The notes under the pieces: generated by a model
Told to the model about the DNA's origin: nothing
The model's database searches: none
The model's input: the letters and a program-made list of their open reading frames with translations, nothing else
Program-made: the position numbers and the translations under genes
Part shown: one piece after another, positions 1,133-55,053 of the stretch
Numbering within the stretch: the stretch's first letter is position 1
How the letters are laid out: the number at the start of each line of letters is the position of its first letter
Assembly (NCBI GenBank): GCA_903846945.1
Contig: CAINCE010000042.1
Coordinates: forward strand, 1-55,053
Length of the DNA stretch: 55,053 nt
Reading direction: 5' to 3'
Source of the DNA: an uncultured bacterium
GTDB lineage: Bacteria; Patescibacteriota; Minisyncoccia; Phycocordibacterales; PALSA-1337

Positions 1133-2488
1133 TTACGCTATCACTCCCCCTCCCAAACACTCTTCACCGCGACTATCATAGACCACAAGTGACTGTCCCG
1201 ATGTCAGCGTATCTTGCGATTCTTCGAACTCCAACACTGTTTCAGTTATCCCCGTCCTTTTAATGCGTGCCTTTTGAAGTTCTTGACGATAACGACTACG
1301 GACTAGCAATGGGAATTTAATCGTTAATTTTACTTTACCCAACTCGTCACTATCTTTTACTGCATCTACAATTCCATTCGTCGACTTTATACTGGCCGGC
1401 ACAATTTCAAATATAGGTACCTCACCACGTATCCAATTCACATTCTGAATTCGAACTTCGCGAGTCGCACTCGGAAGCGATCTATCTTCATCCTTCCCTC
1501 TGTTCGATACAGTCAGAGTATTATGCTCCACATCTTTGTCTATCACAAAATACGGCGCGTCGTTAGGCGACTTCTTTTCGATAGTAAATCCATGTCTCTC
1601 ACCTATAGTGAAGAATAGTGCACCAGGATGCGAGCCAATGACTTCCCCACCCTCATTCAGGACATTCCCTTTTTCAGATTTAATATAATGTGAGAGAAAG
1701 TCTTTTACATCAACTTTTCCGATAAAGCAAAGTCCTTGACTATCTCTCTTGTCAGCATTCGGTAATTTGAATTTCTTCGCGAGCTTTCTCACCTCTGGTT
1801 TCTCTATCCCACCAACTGGAAATAGTATATGTGCGAGCTGAGACTGCTTCAATGTCCAGATGAAATATGATTGGTCTTTGTTGCGGTCGACTCCCGCAAA
1901 CATCGCGTATTCAGCATTTCCTGAGAATTTGTGTGCAGGGGACTTGCGGTCAACACCCGTGTACAATCCAAGTGAAGTATTTGGAAGATCTGCTGAGGGG
2001 ACTCTCGGAGCCACGAAGGTGGCGAGAGGGAATGCGCGCCTAGCAAGGCGCGACATGTGCCCCGAAGCGGAACTTTCAAATACTTCACTTACTATCCGCG
2101 CATAATGCCCCGTCGCAACATAGTCGGCCCCCTCCTTCATCGCCCAATCATAGAAAGCCCCGAACTTCACAGTCTTGTTGCACATCACATCAGGGTTAGG
2201 AGTTCGCCCTGCTCGATATTCAGCGATCATATAGTCTATAACACCTTGTTTGTATTCCCTTTCACAGTCCAATGTAACGAATGGGATTCCTAGATGTGCA
2301 GCAACCCTCATTGCATCCCTCCTCTCTTCTTGCCAATTGCATTCTATCCAATCTGGTTGCCAAACCTTGATAAATACACCCATAACATCGAAGCCTGCTT
2401 TTTGCAACAAGGCAGCAGAAACAGCACTATCTACCCCGCCAGATAGCCCGACGAACACTCGCTTCTTGGACGATTTGACTTTTACCAT
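1133..2488 (-). CDS. mnmA: tRNA 2-thiouridine(34) synthase MnmA carrying an internal insertion
   Basis: Motifs: PP-loop SGGVDSAV, ATGHYAR, NKDQSYF, DSQGLCFIG. Start taken at MVKVKSS (2488) because the upstream ATG at 2515 lies inside a heptamer repeat. Confidence 0.9.
   Translation of the reverse strand: MVKVKSSKKRVFVGLSGGVDSAVSAALLQKAGFDVMGVFIKVWQPDWIECNWQEERRDAMRVAAHLGIPFVTLDCEREYKQGVIDYMIAEYRAGRTPNPDVMCNKTVKFGAFYDWAMKEGADYVATGHYARIVSEVFESSASGHMSRLARRAFPLATFVAPRVPSADLPNTSLGLYTGVDRKSPAHKFSGNAEYAMFAGVDRNKDQSYFIWTLKQSQLAHILFPVGGIEKPEVRKLAKKFKLPNADKRDSQGLCFIGKVDVKDFLSHYIKSEKGNVLNEGGEVIGSHPGALFFTIGERHGFTIEKKSPNDAPYFVIDKDVEHNTLTVSNRGKDEDRSLPSATREVRIQNVNWIRGEVPIFEIVPASIKSTNGIVDAVKDSDELGKVKLTIKFPLLVRSRYRQELQKARIKRTGITETVLEFEESQDTLTSGQSLVVYDSRGEECLGGGVIA
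1971..2090. repeat. 120-bp GC-rich element with 17-bp terminal inverted repeats, in frame inside mnmA
   Basis: AGTGAAGTATTTGGAAG (1971-1987) is the reverse complement of CTTTCAAATACTTCACT (2074-2090) with 1 mismatch. The interior is visibly GC-richer and has a central hairpin, GCGCGCC-N6-GGCGCG. It is 40 codons with no stop in the mnmA frame. Confidence 0.7.
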
Positions 2489-3579: not shown

Positions 3580-4866
3580 CTATATTGGTAAATTCGACGG
3601 TGCCTGTGCCTTCTTTGATGGCAACCTCTCCAATGTTGGCGTCTGACTGACTGAACCTGGGAAGTGATAGATAGTAGCGAGTTCTTCTGTATTCAATACC
3701 AGTCTCTTGCTAGAAAATGGTGCATAAAAATACGACCGTCGTTTGTAGGCCATGAGAGCCATACGGCAATGACGATTTTTCCTAATATCCATAAAATCCT
3801 GCCATGGGTAATCAAACTGAAATGACCATTTCTTTCCATTTGGTTTGAAACCATTGAATCCTTCAGCACTAAATTGTTTTAGACTCCCTACAACACCACC
3901 AACACCCATCGGAGTATTGAAAACTTCTTTTTGACCGATGTATATCGCCCGAATACCACAATCAAAAGCAAATTTCGAAACACTTCGTTCTAATGAAGTG
4001 ACGGTTTCCTGTTCACCTTTTGATAAACGAGGGATATCTAGATATTCACCGATATCTCCTTTCTTCTTATTCTCAGCAGCTACGCCCTTTGTTTTCGGAT
4101 CACGAATCATGATCTCGTCTATCAGCTCCTTGGCACTCTCTTTCCACAAATCACCTTTTTTGAATATATGTCCTGGCAAACGCTGATCATCCTTGTGAGC
4201 GATGATAGGTATCTGCAACCAGACTTGCTGGTTAGGGCCGATACTCCCCAAGAACTCTAGAAATGGCAACAATGGATCTACTTTGAATTCTTCTTTTGGA
4301 TCCTTATCAAGTCCATAATCAACATAGGTCTTAATAGGATATGGATCATCTTTGGTAAATTTGAACTCACCCGCCCACATCTTCATGGTTTTAGGATCGA
4401 AATGAACCGATTTTGCATAATCTTCAACATCTCTAACTTCTACATTTGGAAATTGCGAATACATAGCTGACACTAGGTTAGTCTTTCGTCTCTCTTCCAT
4501 CCATATCATGAACTTTACTTGACCTTCGACAGATATGATCTCCAATGAATACCATGGTCTAGTCTCACCCTTCCAATATTGAGCATAAGGAGTACCATCT
4601 GAAGTATTATGTAATGCTGTCAAAAATACTTCCATAGCAGCTGGCGACTTAAATGTATCTTTAGGAAGTTTTATCTCTACGACACAGTATTTTATGGAAA
4701 GAAAGTTCTTTGCCTGAACATAATCTATCCACAAATCCTTGAAAATGATGAGCAGCAAAACTGCCAAGACGACTGGCGACACTGCGATCATGATCTGTAT
4801 AGACTGCGGAAAAACCTCGATGTTGAGAGTCTTGAGTAAAGTTGCCATAACCTGGTCAATGGACAT
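3580..4866 (-). CDS. Hypothetical membrane-anchored protein (one N-terminal TM helix, no recognisable catalytic motif)
   Basis: Long uninterrupted ORF, tightly spaced with mltG (12 nt). Hydrophobic segment IMIAVSPVVLAVLLLIIF. No Walker A or other motif seen. Confidence 0.6.
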   Translation of the reverse strand: MSIDQVMATLLKTLNIEVFPQSIQIMIAVSPVVLAVLLLIIFKDLWIDYVQAKNFLSIKYCVVEIKLPKDTFKSPAAMEVFLTALHNTSDGTPYAQYWKGETRPWYSLEIISVEGQVKFMIWMEERRKTNLVSAMYSQFPNVEVRDVEDYAKSVHFDPKTMKMWAGEFKFTKDDPYPIKTYVDYGLDKDPKEEFKVDPLLPFLEFLGSIGPNQQVWLQIPIIAHKDDQRLPGHIFKKGDLWKESAKELIDEIMIRDPKTKGVAAENKKKGDIGEYLDIPRLSKGEQETVTSLERSVSKFAFDCGIRAIYIGQKEVFNTPMGVGGVVGSLKQFSAEGFNGFKPNGKKWSFQFDYPWQDFMDIRKNRHCRMALMAYKRRSYFYAPFSSKRLVLNTEELATIYHFPGSVSQTPTLERLPSKKAQAPSNLPI

Positions 4867-4898
4867 AGGTTAAGTATAGCAAATCAGTTGGCTAAAAA

Positions 4899-5077
4899 CC
4901 AAGTACAACAAAAAAGGGTGAAGGGGACTTGCGAGCGCGACTGTAAGCCTCACACGAGGAATTTTTCAGCCTACTTCGCCAAGGCTTCGCAGGCCACTTA
5001 TAGGTGCCCTTCCGAAGCTTTAGCGTAGGAGGGCAGAAAAATATCCGTGCCCCTAAACCCTATTTTGTTGTACTTGG
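4899..5077. repeat. 179-bp MITE-like palindromic element with ~27-bp terminal inverted repeats
   Basis: CCAAGTACAACAAAAAAGGGTGAAGGGG (4899-4926) versus the reverse complement of CCCCTAAACCCTATTTTGTTGTACTTGG (5050-5077). The interior is GC-richer and contains CTTCGCCAAGGCTTCG. Confidence 0.7.
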
Positions 5078-5093
5078 TTCCAGCTAAAGTATT

Positions 5094-8198: not shown

Positions 8199-8285
8199 TT
8201 AGTGATTAGTGGCTAGTTTTTAGTGATTAGTATCCGCCAACCAGAGGAGCGATTTCTAATCACTAGTCACTAACCACTAGCCACT
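8199..8285. repeat. Hairpin element with heptamer-array arms (TAGTGAT/TAGTGGC family) around a GC-rich loop
   Basis: The left arm TTAGTGATTAGTGGCTAGTTTTTAGTGATTAGTA pairs imperfectly with the right arm TAATCACTAGTCACTAACCACTAGCCACT. The 24-nt loop is TCCGCCAACCAGAGGAGCGATTTC. Confidence 0.7.
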
Positions 8286-8341
8286 TGTTACTATTTATCT
8301 ACTTCTAATACTCTCTACTCTACCAAATGACCGATAAAGAA

Positions 8342-11386: not shown

Positions 11387-13264
11387 ATGGAAATCCGCAA
11401 CATAGCTATCATCGCACACGTCGACCACGGTAAGACCACTCTTACCGACGCTATCATGACCCAATGTGGTCACGGTGACGAAGGTACCATGGACAGTAAT
11501 GCCCTCGAACAGGAGCGCGGTATCACCATATACGCAAAGAATACATCCGTTAACTACAAAGGTACCAAGATCAACATAGTCGACACCCCAGGCCACGCTG
11601 ACTTCGGTTCAGAAGTTGAGCGAGTGCTCCGTGCCATCGATGCAGTTCTACTCGTCGTCGACGCCCAGGAAGGTCCTATGCCGCAGACTCGCTTCGTCTT
11701 GAAGAAATCCCTTGAACTAGGTCTGAAGCCTATCGTCGTCATCAACAAGATCGACAAGCCAGCAGCCAATCCTGCTCGTGTGCACGACGAAGTCCTCGAG
11801 CTTTTCATGGAACTGGGTGCGCATGATTCTCAGATCGACTTCCCTACTATCTATGCTATCGGTCGCACTGGTGTCGCGAAGAAGTCCCTCACGGACGATT
11901 CGAAAGATCTCACACCACTATTAGATACTATTATTGAGTATGTTCCTGCGGCTAATGCAAAGGGTCTAGGGTTTAGGGTCGAGGGTATAGGAAGCACAAA
12001 GAAATCCGAACAAGGCCCTAAACCCTATACCCTAAACCCTATACCCTCGCTCACTGCGCAAGTATTTAACCTCGGCTATGACAACTTCCTCGGTCGTCTC
12101 GCAGTTTGCCGTATCTATTCTGGTACGATCAGAGATGGTCAAAATATATGGGTAAAGGATGTCAATGGCAAATCATTTACGGGTAAAGTGACGAAACTAT
12201 TTACATTTGAAGGAAAAAAGCGCCTCGAGACAGCGCAAGCTGAGGCGGGTGATATCGTCACCGTTGCTGGTGTTCCAGAAATATTTATTGGCGAAACCAT
12301 CACAGATAACGAGGCCACCGAGCCATTGCCAGCTATCAGTGTAGATGAACCAACCATCTCTCTACAATTCCTCGTAAACAATTCCCCATTTGCTGGAAAA
12401 GAGGGCACTTTCGTCACAGGTAGACAGATCCGCGAGAGACTCGAACGAGAACTAGAGACAAATGTCGGGCTCAAAGTTGATTTCTCCATGAATGAATTTT
12501 TTACCGTTTTTGGCCGAGGTGAACTTCACATCGGCATCTTGCTCGAGAATATGAGACGAGAAGGCTTTGAACTCCAAGTCTCTCAACCAAAGGTCATCAT
12601 CAAAGAAGAAAAAGATGCCGCGGGTAATATTACAAAAACTTTAGAGCCTTTCGAGGAAGTGATCATCGATACACCCCAAGAATTTTCTGGAACCATCATC
12701 GAAACTCTCGGCAAGCGCAAGGGTATCATGTCCAACATGACAACACATGGTAACCAAGTACGCATGGTTTTCGAGATACCAACTCGCGGACTACTAGGTT
12801 ATCGCAATGCATTTACCATCGATACGAAAGGTGAAGGCATCATGTCTAGTCGTGTCATCGGTTTTAGAGACCATGTCGGACTCATCGAGAAGCGCGAAAC
12901 AGGTTCTATGACATCGATGGTTTCTGGCAAGTCATTCGGTTTCTCATTATGGAACCTCCAGGACCGCGGCAGACTATTCATCGTTCCTGCTTCGGATATC
13001 TATGAAGGAATGGTCATCGGTGATACATCAAAGGGTGATGACCTAGAAGTAAACCCATGTAAAGGTAAGCAACTTTCTAACATGCGTTCATCTGGTAAAG
13101 ATGAAGCTCTCACATTGGTTCCACCATTTATCTTGTCGATCGAACGCGGTCTCGAACTCATGCGAGATGATGAGTACCTCGAGATTACTCCGAAAAATAT
13201 CAGACTCCGCAAGAAGTTTTTAACTGAGTTAGATAGAGCTAGGGCGAGGAGGAAGGATTTGTAA
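11387..13264 (+). CDS. typA: Translational GTPase TypA/BipA with an in-frame repeat insertion
   Basis: Motifs: [23 protein letters not shown]-terminal BipA-type region (LVPP...LEITP..IRLRK). Confidence 0.95.
11965..12048. repeat. Heptamer-arm hairpin (TAGGGTN / CCCTAWA) inside the typA reading frame
   Basis: The left arm TCTAGGGTTTAGGGTCGAGGGTATAGG pairs with the right arm CCCTAAACCCTATACCCTAAACCCTATACCCTC. The 24-nt loop is AAGCACAAAGAAATCCGAACAAGG. It is translated as [28 protein letters not shown]. Confidence 0.85.
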
Positions 13265-22731: not shown

Positions 22732-24681
22732 TTACCCCCTAACTTTCTTCCCCACCTCCGCCTTCCTGATAGACAATGCGTGGCATTTCTTGGCGAGTTC
22801 TGCTAAGCGTGTCGCATCACCAGCCTTTTCTGCAACTCGGAGTTCCTGCATCGCATCTATCAATTCTTCATTGACGATATCTAGACCAAAATTAGATATC
22901 AGTTCCTTCATATGTATGTCCCATTTTGCCACATCGCTACCATACATCGCCTCAGCTTCGAATGACATATCACCTATCTGATCTGACACCCTCAGAGCCC
23001 GACCAGCGTATGACTCCCCCGCTGTCTTCTCTACCTCGGCTAGATATTCGGAATATTTCTTCTCATCCTGCTTCTTGATCAAATGTAGTAGGCCGAACAT
23101 ACGGCGTTCCACCAGATCATTATGTTTCTGCTTGTATGTATACGCATCAGACTGCACAGAAGTTGCAGATGCATGTAGATTGCTTCCTGCCGAGACACTA
23201 GAATTATTTGTTGAGCCTTTTGTAAGGCTGGCACTAGTAGCAGTCGGTGCCAAAGCTTCCGTTTCCATCTTTTTCCTAACTGCACGCAGATCATCCCATA
23301 TAGCACCTGCGTCAATATTCGCCTTGTCAGCGATCATCTTTACAAAATAGTCCTGATCTGTTCGACTATCGATACTCGCGAGCAATGGAAACACTCTCTC
23401 ACGCAGCATTCGTGGGATCTTGCGTGGGTCCTTTTCATCTCGGAGTACATTCATCAATTCAAATTCAACAACGGGTTTAGTGGTACGCAATATCTCTTTC
23501 CATATTTCTGGATTTTCCTTCACCAAGTCTGCTGGATCCTTGCCACCAACGATGTCTGCCATCTTCACATCCATACCGAGTGAGAGTGCTATGCCTGCTG
23601 CTCGAAATGCGGCTTTACGACCAGCGTTATCAGAGTCGAAAGCTATCACCACATTTGGAGATAGACGACGGATGAGTCCGAGATTGTTCACTGCACCCGC
23701 TTTATTTACCGACTCATCTGACAGAGCTGTACCTGATGCAGCCACGATATTCTTTACCCCTGCCTGATATGACATGATGAGATCCATCTGACCTTCGACC
23801 ATGATGGAATAATTCATCGTGCGAATAGAAGTCTTCGCCTTGTCCAGTCCGAACAATATAGATGACTTGTCATATAGCAATGTATCTGGGCTGTTTAGAT
23901 ACTTTGCTGACCTCTCGTCCTCCTTCAATATGCGACCCGTGAATGCGACTATACGCCCACTGGAGTCAGAGATAGGAAACATCACGCGACCTCGGAATCG
24001 GTCATAGTAGGATGCTGCGAGAGAATGTGGAGAAAGTTGACCAGAAATGGCTTTCGGACCGAGTGAAGACGAGGAAGAACGAGTTGCTTCGCCAGCAGGC
24101 GAAGACAGCGTACGTTTCGGGGCAACTTCCTCCACATTCCTATCTTTCTTCTTTATGAGCCCCGCCTTTTCAATCACTACCTGACCCCATCCCTTTTTCT
24201 TCAGGTATTCAAATAGATGTGTCCAACCCTCTGGCGCCCAACCTATGCGAAATGCTTCTTTCGTTTCTGGCTTTATGCCACGACCCTTCACATACTCTTG
24301 TGCATCCTTCGAACGGGCATATTGGTCTTCAAAGAATTTTGCCGCGTCCTCCATGATGCGGAACAATTGGTCCCTCTCGCTCTCGTCTTTCTGATTCACT
24401 ACCAGAGGCACGCCCGCTCTTTCAGCGAGCACTTTGAGTGCGCCCTTGAAATCGAGTCCTTCGAACTGCTCGACAAAGTTAAATATGTCCCCTTTCGAAT
24501 TACACCCAAAACAGTAATACCCGCCTCTCTCCGGTGATATGAAAAATGACGCCGACTTCTCGTTGTGAAATGGGCACTTGGCTTTGTATGACTTCCCTGC
24601 ACGGTCGATCTTCACATAGGAACCGATGAGGTCTTCTATGGGTATGCGAGCTTTGATCTCTTCGACAGTGGTTCGTGACAT
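22732..24681 (-). CDS. dnaG: DNA primase with an in-frame inserted element
   Basis: Zinc ribbon CPFHNEKSASF...YYCFGC. TOPRIM EGQMDLI and DSDNAGRKAA. Start at MSRTTVEEIK (24681) by similarity to primase N-termini. Confidence 0.92.
   Translation of the reverse strand: MSRTTVEEIKARIPIEDLIGSYVKIDRAGKSYKAKCPFHNEKSASFFISPERGGYYCFGCNSKGDIFNFVEQFEGLDFKGALKVLAERAGVPLVVNQKDESERDQLFRIMEDAAKFFEDQYARSKDAQEYVKGRGIKPETKEAFRIGWAPEGWTHLFEYLKKKGWGQVVIEKAGLIKKKDRNVEEVAPKRTLSSPAGEATRSSSSSLGPKAISGQLSPHSLAASYYDRFRGRVMFPISDSSGRIVAFTGRILKEDERSAKYLNSPDTLLYDKSSILFGLDKAKTSIRTMNYSIMVEGQMDLIMSYQAGVKNIVAASGTALSDESVNKAGAVNNLGLIRRLSPNVVIAFDSDNAGRKAAFRAAGIALSLGMDVKMADIVGGKDPADLVKENPEIWKEILRTTKPVVEFELMNVLRDEKDPRKIPRMLRERVFPLLASIDSRTDQDYFVKMIADKANIDAGAIWDDLRAVRKKMETEALAPTATSASLTKGSTNNSSVSAGSNLHASATSVQSDAYTYKQKHNDLVERRMFGLLHLIKKQDEKKYSEYLAEVEKTAGESYAGRALRVSDQIGDMSFEAEAMYGSDVAKWDIHMKELISNFGLDIVNEELIDAMQELRVAEKAGDATRLAELAKKCHALSIRKAEVGKKVRG
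24023..24139. repeat. 117-bp GC-rich element with 19-bp terminal inverted repeats, in frame inside dnaG
   Basis: GAATGTGGAGAAAGTTGACC (24023-24042) versus the reverse complement of GGCAACTTCCTCCACATTC (24121-24139). Central hairpin CTTCGCC-AGCA-GGCGAAG. It is 39 codons (NVEEVAPKRT...GQLSPHS). Confidence 0.75.
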
Positions 24682-24726
24682 GTGTGTAGTATAGGGTATT
24701 GAAGGCAAAGTATAAAGGGTGGTGCA

Positions 24727-24850: not shown

Positions 24851-24873
24851 GTTATCCGGAAATTCCGGATAAC
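24851..24873 (-). terminator. Perfect palindrome GTTATCCGGAA-A-TTCCGGATAAC just downstream of rhuM (terminator or protein-binding site)
   Basis: 11-bp arms, 10 nt after the rhuM stop, no T-tract. A near-identical palindrome sits inside rhuM at 25183-25207. Confidence 0.3.
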
Positions 24874-24882
24874 TGAGTATAA

Positions 24883-25473
24883 CTAATCTGCTTCCAAGTT
24901 CTTCGTCAATTTGACTATGATCTTGCCTTTTAACTTACCCGGATTGTCAGTTGATTCTATAAGAGCAATAGCTTCTTGTAGACCTTCAATCTTTTCAGGC
25001 GATTTGGCAACTACTGATCTATTTAGGCTATAACCACTGACAACGTAGTCTCGCAATACACTTGTTGCCCAAATACGAAACTGGGTAGCCATTTTAGAAT
25101 TAACTCTATAACCAACTGCAATTATCGCGTCAAGATTGTACACATTTGTGATGCGACTGATCTTACGACCCCCTTCACTTTGAACTATCCGGAATTTCCG
25201 GATAGTTGAGTCTGTTTTTAACTCATTTGTTATATATATGTTATTAAGATGCTCGTTAACAGTACGAACATTAACATCAAATAATTGAGCGATCTGTAAC
25301 TGGGTTGCCCATATAGTTTCTCCCTCAACATCCGCCCTCAACTCTGTATTTCCTTTATCATCAGTATAAATGATGATTTTGTCACTCTTGTCAGCAGTTT
25401 TATTTTTTGCAATAACTAAATCCTTCTTACTAGTTGAATTCTCGTTACTCTTACCTGATTTCTTTTTTTTCAT
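24883..25473 (-). CDS. rhuM: RhuM-family (virulence-associated, Fic/DOC-neighbourhood type) protein
   Basis: WATQLQIAQLFDVNVRTVNEHL...NLDAIIAVGYRVNSKMATQFRIWATSVLRDY matches my recollection of the RhuM family consensus. Confidence 0.75.
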   Translation of the reverse strand: MKKKKSGKSNENSTSKKDLVIAKNKTADKSDKIIIYTDDKGNTELRADVEGETIWATQLQIAQLFDVNVRTVNEHLNNIYITNELKTDSTIRKFRIVQSEGGRKISRITNVYNLDAIIAVGYRVNSKMATQFRIWATSVLRDYVVSGYSLNRSVVAKSPEKIEGLQEAIALIESTDNPGKLKGKIIVKLTKNLEAD

Positions 25474-37472: not shown

Positions 37473-37635
37473 AGAGCCCATCCACCATCTCGTGGTACCC
37501 TACCAGGAAAGCTTTATTTTTAGGCGAAAAACAAGCTGGAGTTCGAGCCATAATGAATTATGGCGAGAACGAAGCGCAGTTTTGTAGCCAAAAATAAGGC
37601 TTTATATGGTAGGGGGAAGATGGTGGATGGGCTCT
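37473..37635. repeat. 163-bp long-hairpin / MITE-like element with an 18-bp perfect terminal inverted repeat
   Basis: AGAGCCCATCCACCATCT (37473-37490) is the exact reverse complement of AGATGGTGGATGGGCTCT (37618-37635). Inner arms pair partially. The apex is GCCATAAT-GAA-TTATGGC. Confidence 0.8.
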
Positions 37636-37706
37636 TAAAGTCTTTAAAGTCCGTAAAGTCATGACTACGACTTTATAGACTTTCCAACTTTATGGACTTT
37701 ATGGAC
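37634..37706. repeat. AAAGTC-family hairpin abutting the radC stop codon
   Basis: CTTAAAGTCTTTAAAGTCCGTAAAGTC / GACTTTATAGACTTTCCAACTTTATGGACTTTATGGAC around an 8-nt centre. Confidence 0.8.
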
Positions 37707-43521: not shown

Positions 43522-43605
43522 GATTTACGATTTAAGATTTATGATTTAAGAATGGCGCGACTTCTAGGTGACTATTCTTAAATCCTAAATCCTAAATCTT
43601 AAATC
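43522..43605. repeat. Hairpin element: (GATTTAN)x4 arm, 20-nt GC-rich loop, (NTAAATC)x4 arm
   Basis: The 32-nt arms are complementary at 29/32 positions. The loop is GGCGCGACTTCTAGGTGACT. It fills the rplX-rplE spacer. Confidence 0.9.
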
Positions 43606-44243: not shown

Positions 44244-44255
44244 TGAAGTTAGATT

Positions 44256-44329
44256 GAATTATGAAATATGATATATGAATTATGATTTATGGATTTTTCG
44301 TATCTCATATTTCTTATCTCATATCTCAT
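44256..44329. repeat. ATGANNT-family heptamer arms forming an imperfect hairpin
   Basis: ATGAAAT ATGATAT ATGAATT ATGATTT ATGG / CGTATCT CATATTT CTTATCT CATATCT CAT. The right arm ends on the rpsQ stop codon. Confidence 0.7.
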
Positions 44330-44629: not shown

Positions 44630-44709
44630 GAGCTAAGAGCTTGGAGGTAAGAGATAAGATTTTGAATATATGAGTTTTGCGATTAATCTTATCTCTAAGC
44701 TCTTAACTC
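44630..44709. repeat. GAGNTAA-family heptamer arms forming a hairpin
   Basis: GAGCTAAGAGCTTGGAGGTAAGAGATAAGATT versus the reverse complement of AATCTTATCTCTAAGCTCTTAACTC. The right arm overlaps the last codons of rpmC. Confidence 0.8.
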
Positions 44710-44891
44710 TTGTGCTTCTGCATCTCCGTCATTATCCTCGCTATGTCCTTTCTAAGGTTCCGGCCTTCCTTTACGTTCTTGGCCTTGGCACCAGCAGAAC
44801 CGAATCGGAATGCTCGTAGAGCCTCCCTCTTCTCTGTGATGAGTCTCGTAAGGTCAGCGACTGGTTTATTTGTTATTTCTTTGAATTTCAT
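44703..44891 (-). CDS. rpmC: 50S ribosomal protein L29
   Basis: 62 aa. LRAFRFGSAGAKAKNV...LRKDIARIMT. Confidence 0.9.
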   Translation of the reverse strand: MKFKEITNKPVADLTRLITEKREALRAFRFGSAGAKAKNVKEGRNLRKDIARIMTEMQKHKS

Positions 44892-46153: not shown

Positions 46154-46278
46154 AGTCTATAAAGTCTTTAAAGTCTTTAAAGTCATAAAGTCCATAAAGT
46201 TATTTGTTTTTCTCTACCTTTTCCGTTTTCGACTTTACGGACTTTATGGACTTCTCTGACTTTGGACTTTTAGACTTC
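46154..46278. repeat. AAAGTC-family hairpin whose second arm is the coding sequence of the L22 C-terminal tail
   Basis: The arm at 46154-46200 (TATAAAGTC TTTAAAGTC TTTAAAGTC ATAAAGTCC ATAAAGT) is complementary in motif to 46231-46278 (GACTTTAC GGACTTTAT GGACTTCT CTGACTTT GGACTTTT AGACTTC), which lies inside rplV. Confidence 0.8.
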
Positions 46279-53689: not shown

Positions 53690-55053
53690 TAAAATGACAC
53701 CGAAGGCCTACTGGTTCTCTGAAATAAATAGACACCGAAAACCGTGGTACGGTGATGAGATTACTAGCCATAATCTACACCACCAACATGGATACGGAAT
53801 CTACCAAACAATATATGAAAACATTACAGGAGGAATACCTCCAAGCTGACAGAAAGAAGAAAGGCGAGATACTAGATGAATTTTGCAAGAATACCAAACA
53901 AGAACGCAAGTATGCAATCAAGAAGTTTAGAAACATAGTGAAGTTGAAGAAAGAGGGAGAAAAACGCAAACCAAGGAAACAATACTACAATGGATTGGTA
54001 AAAGCAGCTTTAGCTAAGATGTGGAAGATATTTGACTACCCTTGTGGACAGAGATTGGCACCCCTCCTCGAAACAGAGACCGATCGTATGAGGAAACTTG
54101 GTGAACTAGTTTGCTCCGATGAAACAGCAGAGAAATTGAAGACTATCGTCCCATCGACTATTGATGAGAAACTGAAGCATGAAAAGGAAGTCGAGATGCA
54201 GAAGCACAAATACAAGAAGAAGTGTGACTCGCTTCTTTGCTCTAAGGTTCCTACTAAAACCAGTGCTGAATTAGATCGAGAAAACCCAGGAGTCGCACAG
54301 ATCGATTTCGTCGAACATTGCGGAGCATCAGCTGCTGGAGAATATGTGAATTCGCTCTCAACCGTCGACATATTCTCTGGTTGGTGGGAAGGAGATGGAG
54401 TAATGGGAAAAGGTCAGGAAAGAGCACTGAAAGCCATAGATGAGGCTAGAAAGCGGTCACCAATACCTTGGAGGGAGATGCATCCAGACAATGGTGGTAA
54501 CATCATGAATTACCATGTGTATGAGTATGCAATGACAAATGGTATCGACTACTCTCGTTCTAGACCTTACAAGAAGAATGATAACTGCTTTGTGGAGCAG
54601 AAGAACTCGACACACGTGAGACAAATAGTGGGACACCTTAGACACGATACCGAGGAAGAAAGAAGGATCATTTCTGATCTGTATCGAAACGAACTACGAC
54701 TTTACAAGAACTTCTTTCAACCAGTACTGAAGCTCGTAGAGAAAGTTAGAATCAAAGGTAAGATCAAGAAGAAGTATGACAAGGCAAAAACACCATATCT
54801 CCGACTCATGGAGTCAGACAAGATTAGCAAGGAGACAAAGATTGAATTGAAGAAAACCTATGACTCGCTGAACCCAGCGGAACTGAAAAGGAAGATTGAC
54901 ACGAAACTAAAGTTACTCCACAAAGAATATCAGAAAAGCAAAAACTCAAAAAAATCCGAGAAAAGTTACAAGAAACTAACACCAACCATAGTGTCTACTT
55001 TAATCGGTCAACCAGTGTAGCTTCGGTGTCATTATTAAATCGGTTGACACGGA
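53690..55053 (+). mobile_element. IS-like element: DDE transposase gene flanked by inverted AATGACACCGAAG repeats; right boundary may lie beyond the window
   Basis: AATGACACCGAAG (53693-53705) is the exact reverse complement of CTTCGGTGTCATT (55021-55033). A second GACACCGAA lies at 53731-53739. Confidence 0.7.
53752..55020 (+). CDS. DDE (rve/integrase-core type) transposase
   Basis: Candidate catalytic triad contexts: QIDFVEH, MHPDNGGNIMN, CFVEQKNSTHVRQ. Basic HTH-like N-terminus. I cannot assign a family with confidence. Confidence 0.7.
   Translation: MMRLLAIIYTTNMDTESTKQYMKTLQEEYLQADRKKKGEILDEFCKNTKQERKYAIKKFRNIVKLKKEGEKRKPRKQYYNGLVKAALAKMWKIFDYPCGQRLAPLLETETDRMRKLGELVCSDETAEKLKTIVPSTIDEKLKHEKEVEMQKHKYKKKCDSLLCSKVPTKTSAELDRENPGVAQIDFVEHCGASAAGEYVNSLSTVDIFSGWWEGDGVMGKGQERALKAIDEARKRSPIPWREMHPDNGGNIMNYHVYEYAMTNGIDYSRSRPYKKNDNCFVEQKNSTHVRQIVGHLRHDTEEERRIISDLYRNELRLYKNFFQPVLKLVEKVRIKGKIKKKYDKAKTPYLRLMESDKISKETKIELKKTYDSLNPAELKRKIDTKLKLLHKEYQKSKNSKKSEKSYKKLTPTIVSTLIGQPV

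Follow-up and report, generated by a model that had tools for sequence, protein, structure and literature searches.

A palindromic insert in the DNA primase gene

The stretch analysed here (the window) comprises the whole 55,053 nt of contig CAINCE010000042.1, which carries on its reverse strand the dnaG gene for DNA primase and, within this gene, an in-frame inverted repeat of 117 bp (Table 1). This insert, its relatives at other loci and the family of palindromic elements to which they are assigned are the subject of the present analysis. Flanks of related loci extended to at most 10 kb, and the covariance-model scans covered the window and these loci.

The two arms of the dnaG element (24023-24047 and 24115-24139) are 25 nt long, complementary without gaps at 22 of 25 positions, and separated by 67 nt. 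The original prediction, made from the sequence of the window, had noticed the same repeat, read with a gap, as 18 matches out of 19 with one indel. The central hairpin CTTCGCC-AGCA-GGCGAAG that it had proposed is present at 24087-24104, and the GC enrichment that it had proposed is real but modest (0.53 in the element, compared to 0.474 in the gene and 0.439 in the window). The coding-strand RNA of positions 24013-24149 folds at -48.5 kcal/mol (z = -3.65 against dinucleotide shuffles). At the scale of the window, seven inverted repeats scored at least 16, compared to a mean of 0.03 per window in 30 dinucleotide shuffles.

The closest DnaG ortholog (P0002, locus L001), with 89% amino acid identity over the aligned part, reads KKEG-ANTYYDRF at the insert site. 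Relative to L001, the dnaG gene of the window has a clean extra 120 nt, i.e. 40 codons, while the hairpin itself measures 117 bp; the edges of the 120-nt block are ambiguous by a few nt in the nucleotide alignment of the window with L001 and L008. The predicted in-frame element is thus present, in a place where the nearest relative lacks 120 nt. Across 87 dnaG loci, recovered by tblastn and anchored by a three-frame motif search, hence independently of gene calls, the distance from EKAGL to YDRFRGR was mostly 24-33 nt, in agreement with the approximately 8 residues given for the E. coli loop in the original prediction. The DnaG strain variant P0001 differs inside an arm by a single P-to-T change, and the source names of close DnaG homologs were Paceibacteria or Taylorbacteria, within the Candidate Phyla Radiation (CPR).

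Alignment to the Aquifex DnaG structure (2au3) breaks at the insert (query residues 173/223 against chain residues 171/179), showing that the insert site is a surface loop within the RNA-polymerase domain, in the N-terminal part of the latter. The same alignment ruled out the linker between the zinc-binding and polymerase domains as the insert site. In the AlphaFold2 model of the 658-aa open reading frame (ORF), residues 191-231 had a predicted local distance difference test (pLDDT) score of about 30 and no secondary structure (mean pLDDT of the model, 67.9), and the insert would accordingly add about 40 residues predicted to be disordered. Another DnaG ortholog (P0008, 1026 aa) contained some 390 inserted aa (alignment A1, columns 115-506) with a LAGLIDADG domain (PF14528) in the CFGC motif of the zinc ribbon, i.e. 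an intein.

Table 1. Positions of the palindromic elements, their parts and their surroundings. Positions refer to the window unless a locus is named.
Feature	Position	Strand	Description
Complete hairpin element in dnaG	24023..24139	-	117 nt; core orientation follows the coding strand; inverted repeat, fold and covariance-model match
Covariance-model match of the dnaG copy	24025-24137	-	103.7 bits, E 8.6e-27
5' arm of closing stem P1 (coding sense), GAATGTGGAGGAAGTTGCCCCGAAA	24115..24139	-	Encodes (R)NVEEVAPK; inverted repeat
3' arm of closing stem P1 (coding sense), TTTCTGGTCAACTTTCTCCACATTC	24023..24047	-	Encodes ISGQLSPHS; 22/25 complementary to the 5' arm
Conserved core	24044..24118	-	Junction GTACGCTGTC, H1, GCAACTC, degenerate hairpin H2, TCCGAAAGCC; invariant columns of alignment A3
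Hairpin H1, CTTCGCC-TGCT-GGCGAAG (coding sense)	24087..24104	-	Invariant CTGCTG loop, co-varying stem, preceded by a TGTC tag
120-nt (40-codon) block without counterpart in dnaG of the nearest relative	24019..24138	-	NVEEV...SPHSL; translation NVEEVAPKRTLSSPAGEATRSSSSSLGPKAISGQLSPHSL
Host gene dnaG (DNA primase)	22732..24681	-	649 aa from ATG (MSRTT); upstream TTG at 24708 gives 658 aa
Sister element in mnmA	1970..2090	-	In frame, 121-nt hairpin; match 1976-2084, 86.2 bits
28-nt scar adjoining the mnmA element	1942..1969	-	Encodes GLYTGVDRKS, duplicating the downstream AGVDRNKD segment; site of the junction
Divergent intergenic hairpin (probable relative)	4897..5079	-	183 nt; match 4902-5074, 25.2 bits, E 1.3e-4
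GTCATTCCCGCGAAGGCGGGAATC palindrome, in frame in the dnaG loop	L007 3596-3617; L028 3662-3683; L033 3659-3680		Translates to VIPAKAGIQ or LDSRFRGNDN

A dispersed family with a conserved internal core

The inserts in dnaG and in mnmA are matched by one covariance model (R1, built from 10 copies), with scores of 103.7 and 86.2 bits, respectively. Their proposed membership of a single class therefore extends beyond a shared plan to a homologous core. In total, R1 recovered 24 copies at E < 1e-6, distributed over the window and 19 other loci. Each follows the same plan, in which a core of about 70 nt, made of hairpin H1 (YGTC tag and invariant CTGCTG loop) and the more variable hairpin H2, is closed by a stem of 20-30 bp, for hairpin lengths of 105-183 nt. 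The H1 loop measures 4 nt, its stem is GC-rich (6-7 bp), and its tag is TGTC, or CGTC in L019, L020, L034 and L045. The sequence of the closing stem differs at every locus, its two sides remaining complementary and co-varying across orthologs. The two copies of locus L084 combine cores of about 95% identity with unrelated arms, and the dnaG arm occurs only once in the window, even when up to 3 mismatches are allowed. The element is thus defined by its internal core and not, as the original prediction had it, by terminal repeats, the arms being locus-specific.

The copies are unlinked, occur in several genomes and occupy diverse contexts, including the dnaG loop (site 1), a second dnaG site, mnmA, dnaE, comF and at least 8 intergenic sites; 15 lie within long ORFs and nine in intergenic DNA or short ORFs. 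The second dnaG site is the variable linker between the catalytic and C-terminal domains, where copies were found in six species. The dnaE copy is located in a 1140-aa ORF identified as DnaE, while the in-frame comF copy (P0241/P0242, ComF family, 256 aa, residues ~102-124) encodes GRFGGREGGREPAATSAEVDGVS, a peptide nearly identical to that of the second dnaG linker in L019. ComF was the sole new host among the 5 matches (E <= 1) returned by a chimeric multi-frame peptide query of a 5.8-billion-protein set, a weak search, as short low-complexity peptides have no statistical power at this size. Contigs with two copies each were also found (L082, L084 and L089, with intergenic copies). A subfamily with an additional H1-like hairpin (GATTC-TGCT-GAATC) between H1 and H2 was observed at unrelated loci in three genomes (L003, 3545-3684; L082, 6226-6362; L045, 4334-4471).

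A core pattern drawn from the conserved interior (GWACGSTGTC-N5-CTGCTG-N6-CAMCTC) was also scanned against metagenomes. It returned 5 loci, none of them in dnaG, each with the ~70-nt core inside its own perfect stem of 20-30 bp. The same scan of viral contigs gave no match. With Rfam, the window yielded only tRNA at gathering thresholds, and the best match of a canonical copy (L091) at E <= 10 scored 14.8 bits against a cut-off of 72. A literature search, largely outside subscription journals, found no description of such elements in CPR bacteria. The family is to that extent previously undescribed, and its in-frame copies extend from dnaG to mnmA, dnaE and comF.

Two intergenic hairpins of the window had been proposed as further copies, of which one was retained. 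The hairpin at 4897-5079 shares the three-way plan of the family with a 65-nt extension in H1, folds as DNA at z = -9.7, has no open frame, and is a probable relative, weak and divergent. The second (37473-37635) was ruled out as a member by its score (11.5 bits to R1) and its unbranched fold; it is an intergenic hairpin of 163 nt with a perfect outer repeat of 18 nt and a DNA fold at z = -11.4, positioned between a 120-aa ORF and radC and without Rfam match.

Covariation and conservation

In alignment A5 of the 24 copies, whose fit to the covariance model favours structure, 91.2% of the cells were paired, compared to 58.7% after shuffling and ~42% with partners slid, and 309 cells were doubly changed, compared to 92; an independent analysis with MAFFT and RNAalifold agrees. 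Hairpin H1 (helix 3) was paired in 97.3% of cases, with changes on both sides in 10 of its 11 pairs. In helices 1-3 of A5, about 6 cells out of some 760 were G·U pairs, and among 463 arm pairs of the coding copies there were 9 G·U (in the mRNA sense), 12 A·C and 49 other mismatches. Because G·U is almost absent and shows no excess over A·C, complementarity appears to be kept at the DNA level rather than on the mRNA.

Arms and core differ strongly in conservation. Arm identity between copies (0.17-0.70) was near the neutral level, compared to 0.5-0.93 for the core. Core identity at orthologous positions of dnaG was 0.67-0.84, compared to 0.34-0.53 at 4-fold degenerate sites; for the core of the window against its orthologous dnaG copies, the corresponding values were 0.67-0.75 and 0.34-0.44. 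In mnmA, a block of 34 nt including H1 was 100% identical in four lineages whose 4-fold sites were 0.33-0.39 identical. Core identity is unusable as a clock, since the core is conserved far above the neutral rate.

Orientation and empty sites

Orthologous copies occur in both orientations. In dnaG, the inserts of L002 and L005 are homologous to that of the window in the same orientation, and that of L003 as its reverse complement (local alignment scores 61-65 against 15-36). Among these orthologous copies, the outer arms differ yet remain complementary, and the TGCT loop is kept with an H1 stem changed on both sides. The inner 20 nt of the arm are common to the window and L003, and the arm mismatches move together with the core. 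In mnmA, the element lies in gene orientation in L096 and L097, in the opposite orientation at the same site in L095, and is missing from L094. In dnaE, L092 and L093 carry it at one site in opposite orientations. When either window hairpin was flipped in silico, the ORF stayed open and the resulting peptides resembled those of naturally inverted orthologs. Most likely, the element inverts in place.

The nearest relative genome (GCA_964817355.1, with loci L001 and L094) was empty at both the dnaG and the mnmA site. A neighbour-joining tree of DnaG was compatible with one ancestral gain followed by losses as well as with repeated gains or allelic exchange.

A recombination junction at the mnmA element

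The window was 98-100% identical to L097 from position 3600 to ~1990, with this level of identity along the 1.6 kb upstream of mnmA, and about 99% identical to it between yceG and the end of the element. Directly 3' of the element, this identity falls to 0.7-0.8 (~75%), and past the 28-nt scar the empty-type linker of the L094 lineage resumes. Inside the element, about 8 of 121 positions differ between the window and L097, one of these differences being a compensated H2 pair (CCACC/GGTGG against CCGCC/GGCGG). The mnmA gene of the window is therefore a mosaic of two diverged lineages, in which the segment carrying the element has been fused, within 28 nt of the palindrome, to a diverged allele, and it shows spread by allelic recombination. 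This junction is consistent with a recombinogenic hairpin, causation by the hairpin being beyond the reach of a single case. DNA uptake and recombination are plausible because the window encodes ComEC, an AddA-like helicase-nuclease and RadC.

A further insert in MnmA of the window, about 30 aa long, is located close to the C-terminal domain (window ~1315-1420, aa ~365-400), EIVPASIKSTNGIVDAVKDSDELGKVKLTIKF. It is also present in P0122 and absent from P0123 and P0124, and the repeat scan found no strong inverted repeat there.

Reading frame and translation

Both anchors were in one frame in all 87 dnaG loci, and the 27 distinct site-1 inserts of at least 60 nt, most of them unrelated in sequence, all kept the frame and lacked stops. 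Similarly, every family copy inside a long ORF was open, with no frameshift or stop. Among the nine copies in intergenic DNA or short ORFs, by best frame, four had a stop within or just beside the element and one had no open frame at all. Since the frame is always kept and stops are absent, the inserts appear to be translated rather than removed, and the dnaG insert is most likely transcribed and translated with its gene. The peptide itself is not the selected object, because it is unrelated between the two orientations, disorder is predicted for the segment, and the nearest relative has no insert in either gene. The insert behaves as tolerated selfish DNA rather than as a selected protein segment. 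Taken together, the dispersed unlinked sites, the in-frame state of 27 out of 27 inserts and the mnmA junction support the proposal of a mobile or recombinogenic class tolerated in genes only when in frame.

Other hairpins in the dnaG loop

Long DnaG linkers free of inverted repeats, which had been named as a finding that would speak against an element, were not the pattern observed, as 13 of the 16 distinct dnaG site-1 regions of at least 100 nt folded at z <= -3.6. Nine of these 13 lacked the family core. They fell into three kinds, namely long plain hairpins in L015, L026 and L027/L035, a hairpin of heptamer repeats in L034, and inserts with the GTCATTCCCGCGAAGGCGGGAATC palindrome in L007, L028 and L033. 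The shorter site-1 inserts (66-96 nt), which belong to more distant clades, were unstructured. Several kinds of hairpin-forming DNA thus colonise one permissive dnaG loop in this clade.

Interpretation and alternative explanations

The 117-bp segment is best read, with a probability of about 0.7, as one copy of a dispersed, non-autonomous family of palindromic repeats of Paceibacteria (CPR), translated with its host genes, selfish, and resembling the Rickettsia palindromic elements (RPEs) and the repetitive extragenic palindromic sequences (REPs) compared below.

Several points weigh against this reading. At orthologous positions the core is more conserved than synonymous sites, unlike decaying junk DNA, and this excess implies either a function at the sequence level, for example as a protein-binding site, or repeated horizontal replacement. 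Mobility between loci is suggested by the distribution of the copies, no transposase, target-site duplication or conserved terminus having been found, and translation of the inserts is likewise suggested by frame conservation. Finally, alignments A4 and A5 were fitted to R1, itself a model of 10 sequences.

The first of these points bears on the possibility that the core is a functional DNA site for a protein encoded by the host or by the element (for instance a recombinase, an invertase or a nucleoid protein), maintained by purifying selection at each locus. Conservation far above neutral at orthologous sites in either orientation would be expected of such a site, as would strand-symmetric pairing, inversion in place and the presence of one copy at a recombination junction. 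However, no candidate protein was found in the window, the closest genome lacks the element at both sites, and the conservation could also reflect horizontal replacement by recombination, as at mnmA. We consider this explanation unlikely.

Selection for a cis-acting mRNA hairpin that serves dnaG expression (for instance by pausing ribosomes between folding units, providing an RNase III site or stabilising the mRNA), with the peptide incidental, has a lower probability still. The fold is very stable, with z = -3.65 for the window copy and values down to -9.8 in relatives, covariation is strong, and the core exceeds synonymous sites in conservation, all of which would suit an RNA structure. Nevertheless, both orientations occur at one site in three genes, the mRNA strand shows no G·U excess over A·C, further copies are present in unrelated genes as well as in intergenic DNA, the nearest relative does without the element in dnaG and mnmA, and no Rfam family was matched.

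Equally improbable is that the palindromes arose in place without any mobile element, by template switching that builds or enlarges repeats wherever the protein tolerates extra residues. Such events can create and expand hairpins (PMC8794818, PMC13100816), and they would account for arms unique to each locus, for the lack of target-site duplications and for the unrelated, core-less long hairpins that many relatives carry in the same dnaG loop. Yet a core of ~70 nt with invariant junction and loop bases is common to different genes, intergenic DNA and different genomes, which excludes independent origins. Template switching in place therefore probably explains the arms and the core-less hairpins, and not the shared core.

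An intervening sequence missing from the mature protein (mini-intron, translational bypass element or mini-intein) is very improbable: the insert is compact, structured and located in an essential gene, and the P0008 ortholog does have a true intein elsewhere in dnaG, but all coding copies are in frame and stop-free, for which a removed sequence would have no reason, 40 aa of low complexity without splicing motifs fall short of an intein, and neither an intron nor a ribozyme family was matched.

Proposed mechanism

Under the reading as a family of selfish palindromic repeats, three processes may act on the copies. Within a locus, polymerase template switching or gene conversion between the arms probably maintains and flips the copies, by homogenising the arms and inverting the spacer. 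Template switching between inverted-repeat arms is known to homogenise arms, invert spacers and expand arms (PMC8604942, PMC8794818, PMC13100816), and it would explain the compensated changes including indels, the in-place inversion and an outward growth of the stem. Between L092 and L093, the dnaE copies show indels that match in the two arms. Between lineages, copies would spread by homologous recombination of the flanking gene, as at mnmA, the one case in which this was shown, and they may also be cleanly lost. Copying of the arms from the target was rejected for dnaG and mnmA, since the empty alleles do not contain the arms.

Movement to new loci must also have happened, because dnaG (2 sites), mnmA, dnaE, comF and many intergenic sites carry copies. 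The leading candidate, a speculative one, would be a hairpin-recognising single-strand DNA transposase of the Y1 or REP-associated tyrosine transposase (RAYT) type, encoded elsewhere. No transposase of this type was found among the 36 window ORFs scanned against Pfam, no flanking direct repeat at any of the 24 copies or in the comparison of empty and filled dnaG, and no conserved termini or flanking motifs among the copies inspected. Any specific mechanism of mobility is therefore proposed with much lower confidence than the family itself.

A bolder version, which we put forward tentatively and as doubtful, would have these repeats form a new, structure-defined class of DNA elements, with a three-way-junction core and a stem of free sequence, kept by purifying selection in either orientation through a dedicated hairpin- or cruciform-binding protein that drives inversion, recombination and allelic spread. 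If this were true, the element would be more than passive junk, actively remodelling loops in essential CPR proteins and seeding recombination breakpoints.

Comparison with known repeats

Miniature inverted-repeat transposable elements, or MITEs, are defined by conserved terminal inverted repeats and target-site duplications. The classical ones (Correia, ERIC, Nezha) are likewise small, non-coding, dispersed, hairpin-forming and sometimes in frame in genes (PMC10969869). Assignment to this class was rejected, as dispersed copies are present but conserved terminal repeats and target-site duplications are both absent.

RPEs are palindromic repeats of 100-150 bp found in intergenic and coding DNA, including in-frame fusions in unrelated housekeeping genes (PMC10969869, PMC1779305), and their families are recognised by similarity along the element with hidden Markov models (PMC1779305). 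The present family resembles them as a set of palindromic repeats in both intergenic and coding DNA of small-genome bacteria that leave the host ORF intact. It differs in its host (Paceibacteria instead of Rickettsiales), in the conservation of an internal core only, with locus-specific, co-varying arms, and in the occurrence of orthologous copies in both orientations. No sequence relation is apparent, and the two were compared by description. RPEs are the closest functional analogue of the family, the relation being one of analogy and not of membership.

CGTC-tagged REPs, in which the tag is often TGTC and stands unpaired at one end, have an 8-9 bp stem that begins with A/T pairs, together with a 4-5 nt loop and a tail of CCA (PMC3733652). 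They have no known transposase, their intragenic copies are in frame and often in replication or repair genes including dnaE, and their dimers form larger hairpins (PMC3733652). The present family shares with them a short tagged hairpin of variable stem and few loop types, H1 being preceded by TGTC or CGTC. In contrast, its H1 stem is shorter (6-7 bp) and GC-rich, its tail is GCA(C)C instead of CCA, and P1, H1 and a different H2 make its unit a three-way structure rather than a dimer of like units.

Among other systems, mitochondrial genes of Nematomorpha contain translated perfect inverted repeats whose arms encode conserved protein regions (PMC6649704), whereas the arms of the present family encode a dispensable loop. 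Template-switch hairpins (quasipalindromes) arise in place without a shared dispersed core, which this family has. An integron attC-like site was dismissed, as the ends, inspected by eye, do not fit RYYYAAC/GTTRRRY. Compared to RPEs, tagged REPs and MITEs, the family stands apart by its reversed conservation, with a kept core and free arms, its occurrence in both orientations and its different host phylum.

Further features of the window and related loci

Seven other intergenic hairpins of the window (8200-8293, 11961-12047, 37637-37701, 43522-43605, 44255-44321, 44630-44711 and 46184-46248) have arms made of tandem units of ~7 nt (for example AGGGTNT against its complement). Several of them lie between ribosomal-protein genes, and the dnaG loop of L034 contains an in-frame hairpin of like type. 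A perfect 19-nt palindrome, TATCCGGAA(A/T)TTCCGGATA, is present in two copies 333 nt apart (24853-24871 and 25186-25204), one just downstream of the rhuM-like ORF adjoining dnaG and one inside it, and may be operator-like. In L008, an ORF for a reverse transcriptase (RVT_1) and a rhuM-like ORF (1330-2217) are located just upstream of a dnaG gene with an empty site. At the end of the window, a 422-aa ORF (53752-55020) with a sub-threshold match to an integrase core (rve; 28.8 bits against a cut-off of 32.6) may be an insertion sequence transposase.

Significance for CPR bacteria

The genomes of CPR bacteria (Patescibacteria) are tiny, and unexplained extra segments are a known trait of their proteins. 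The elements described here offer a DNA-level source for some of these segments, in the form of hairpins in permissive loops of the primase, the alpha subunit of DNA polymerase III, MnmA and ComF, where they stay and flip in place, each orientation giving a different peptide. In practice, the covariance model and the search pattern can flag such inserts in the annotation, structure prediction and phylogenomics of CPR proteins. The family also provides a natural setting for concerted arm evolution and for palindromes as recombination hot spots in uncultured bacteria, and in-frame palindromic repeats in replication genes, known from Rickettsia and other Proteobacteria, are now extended to a distant phylum.

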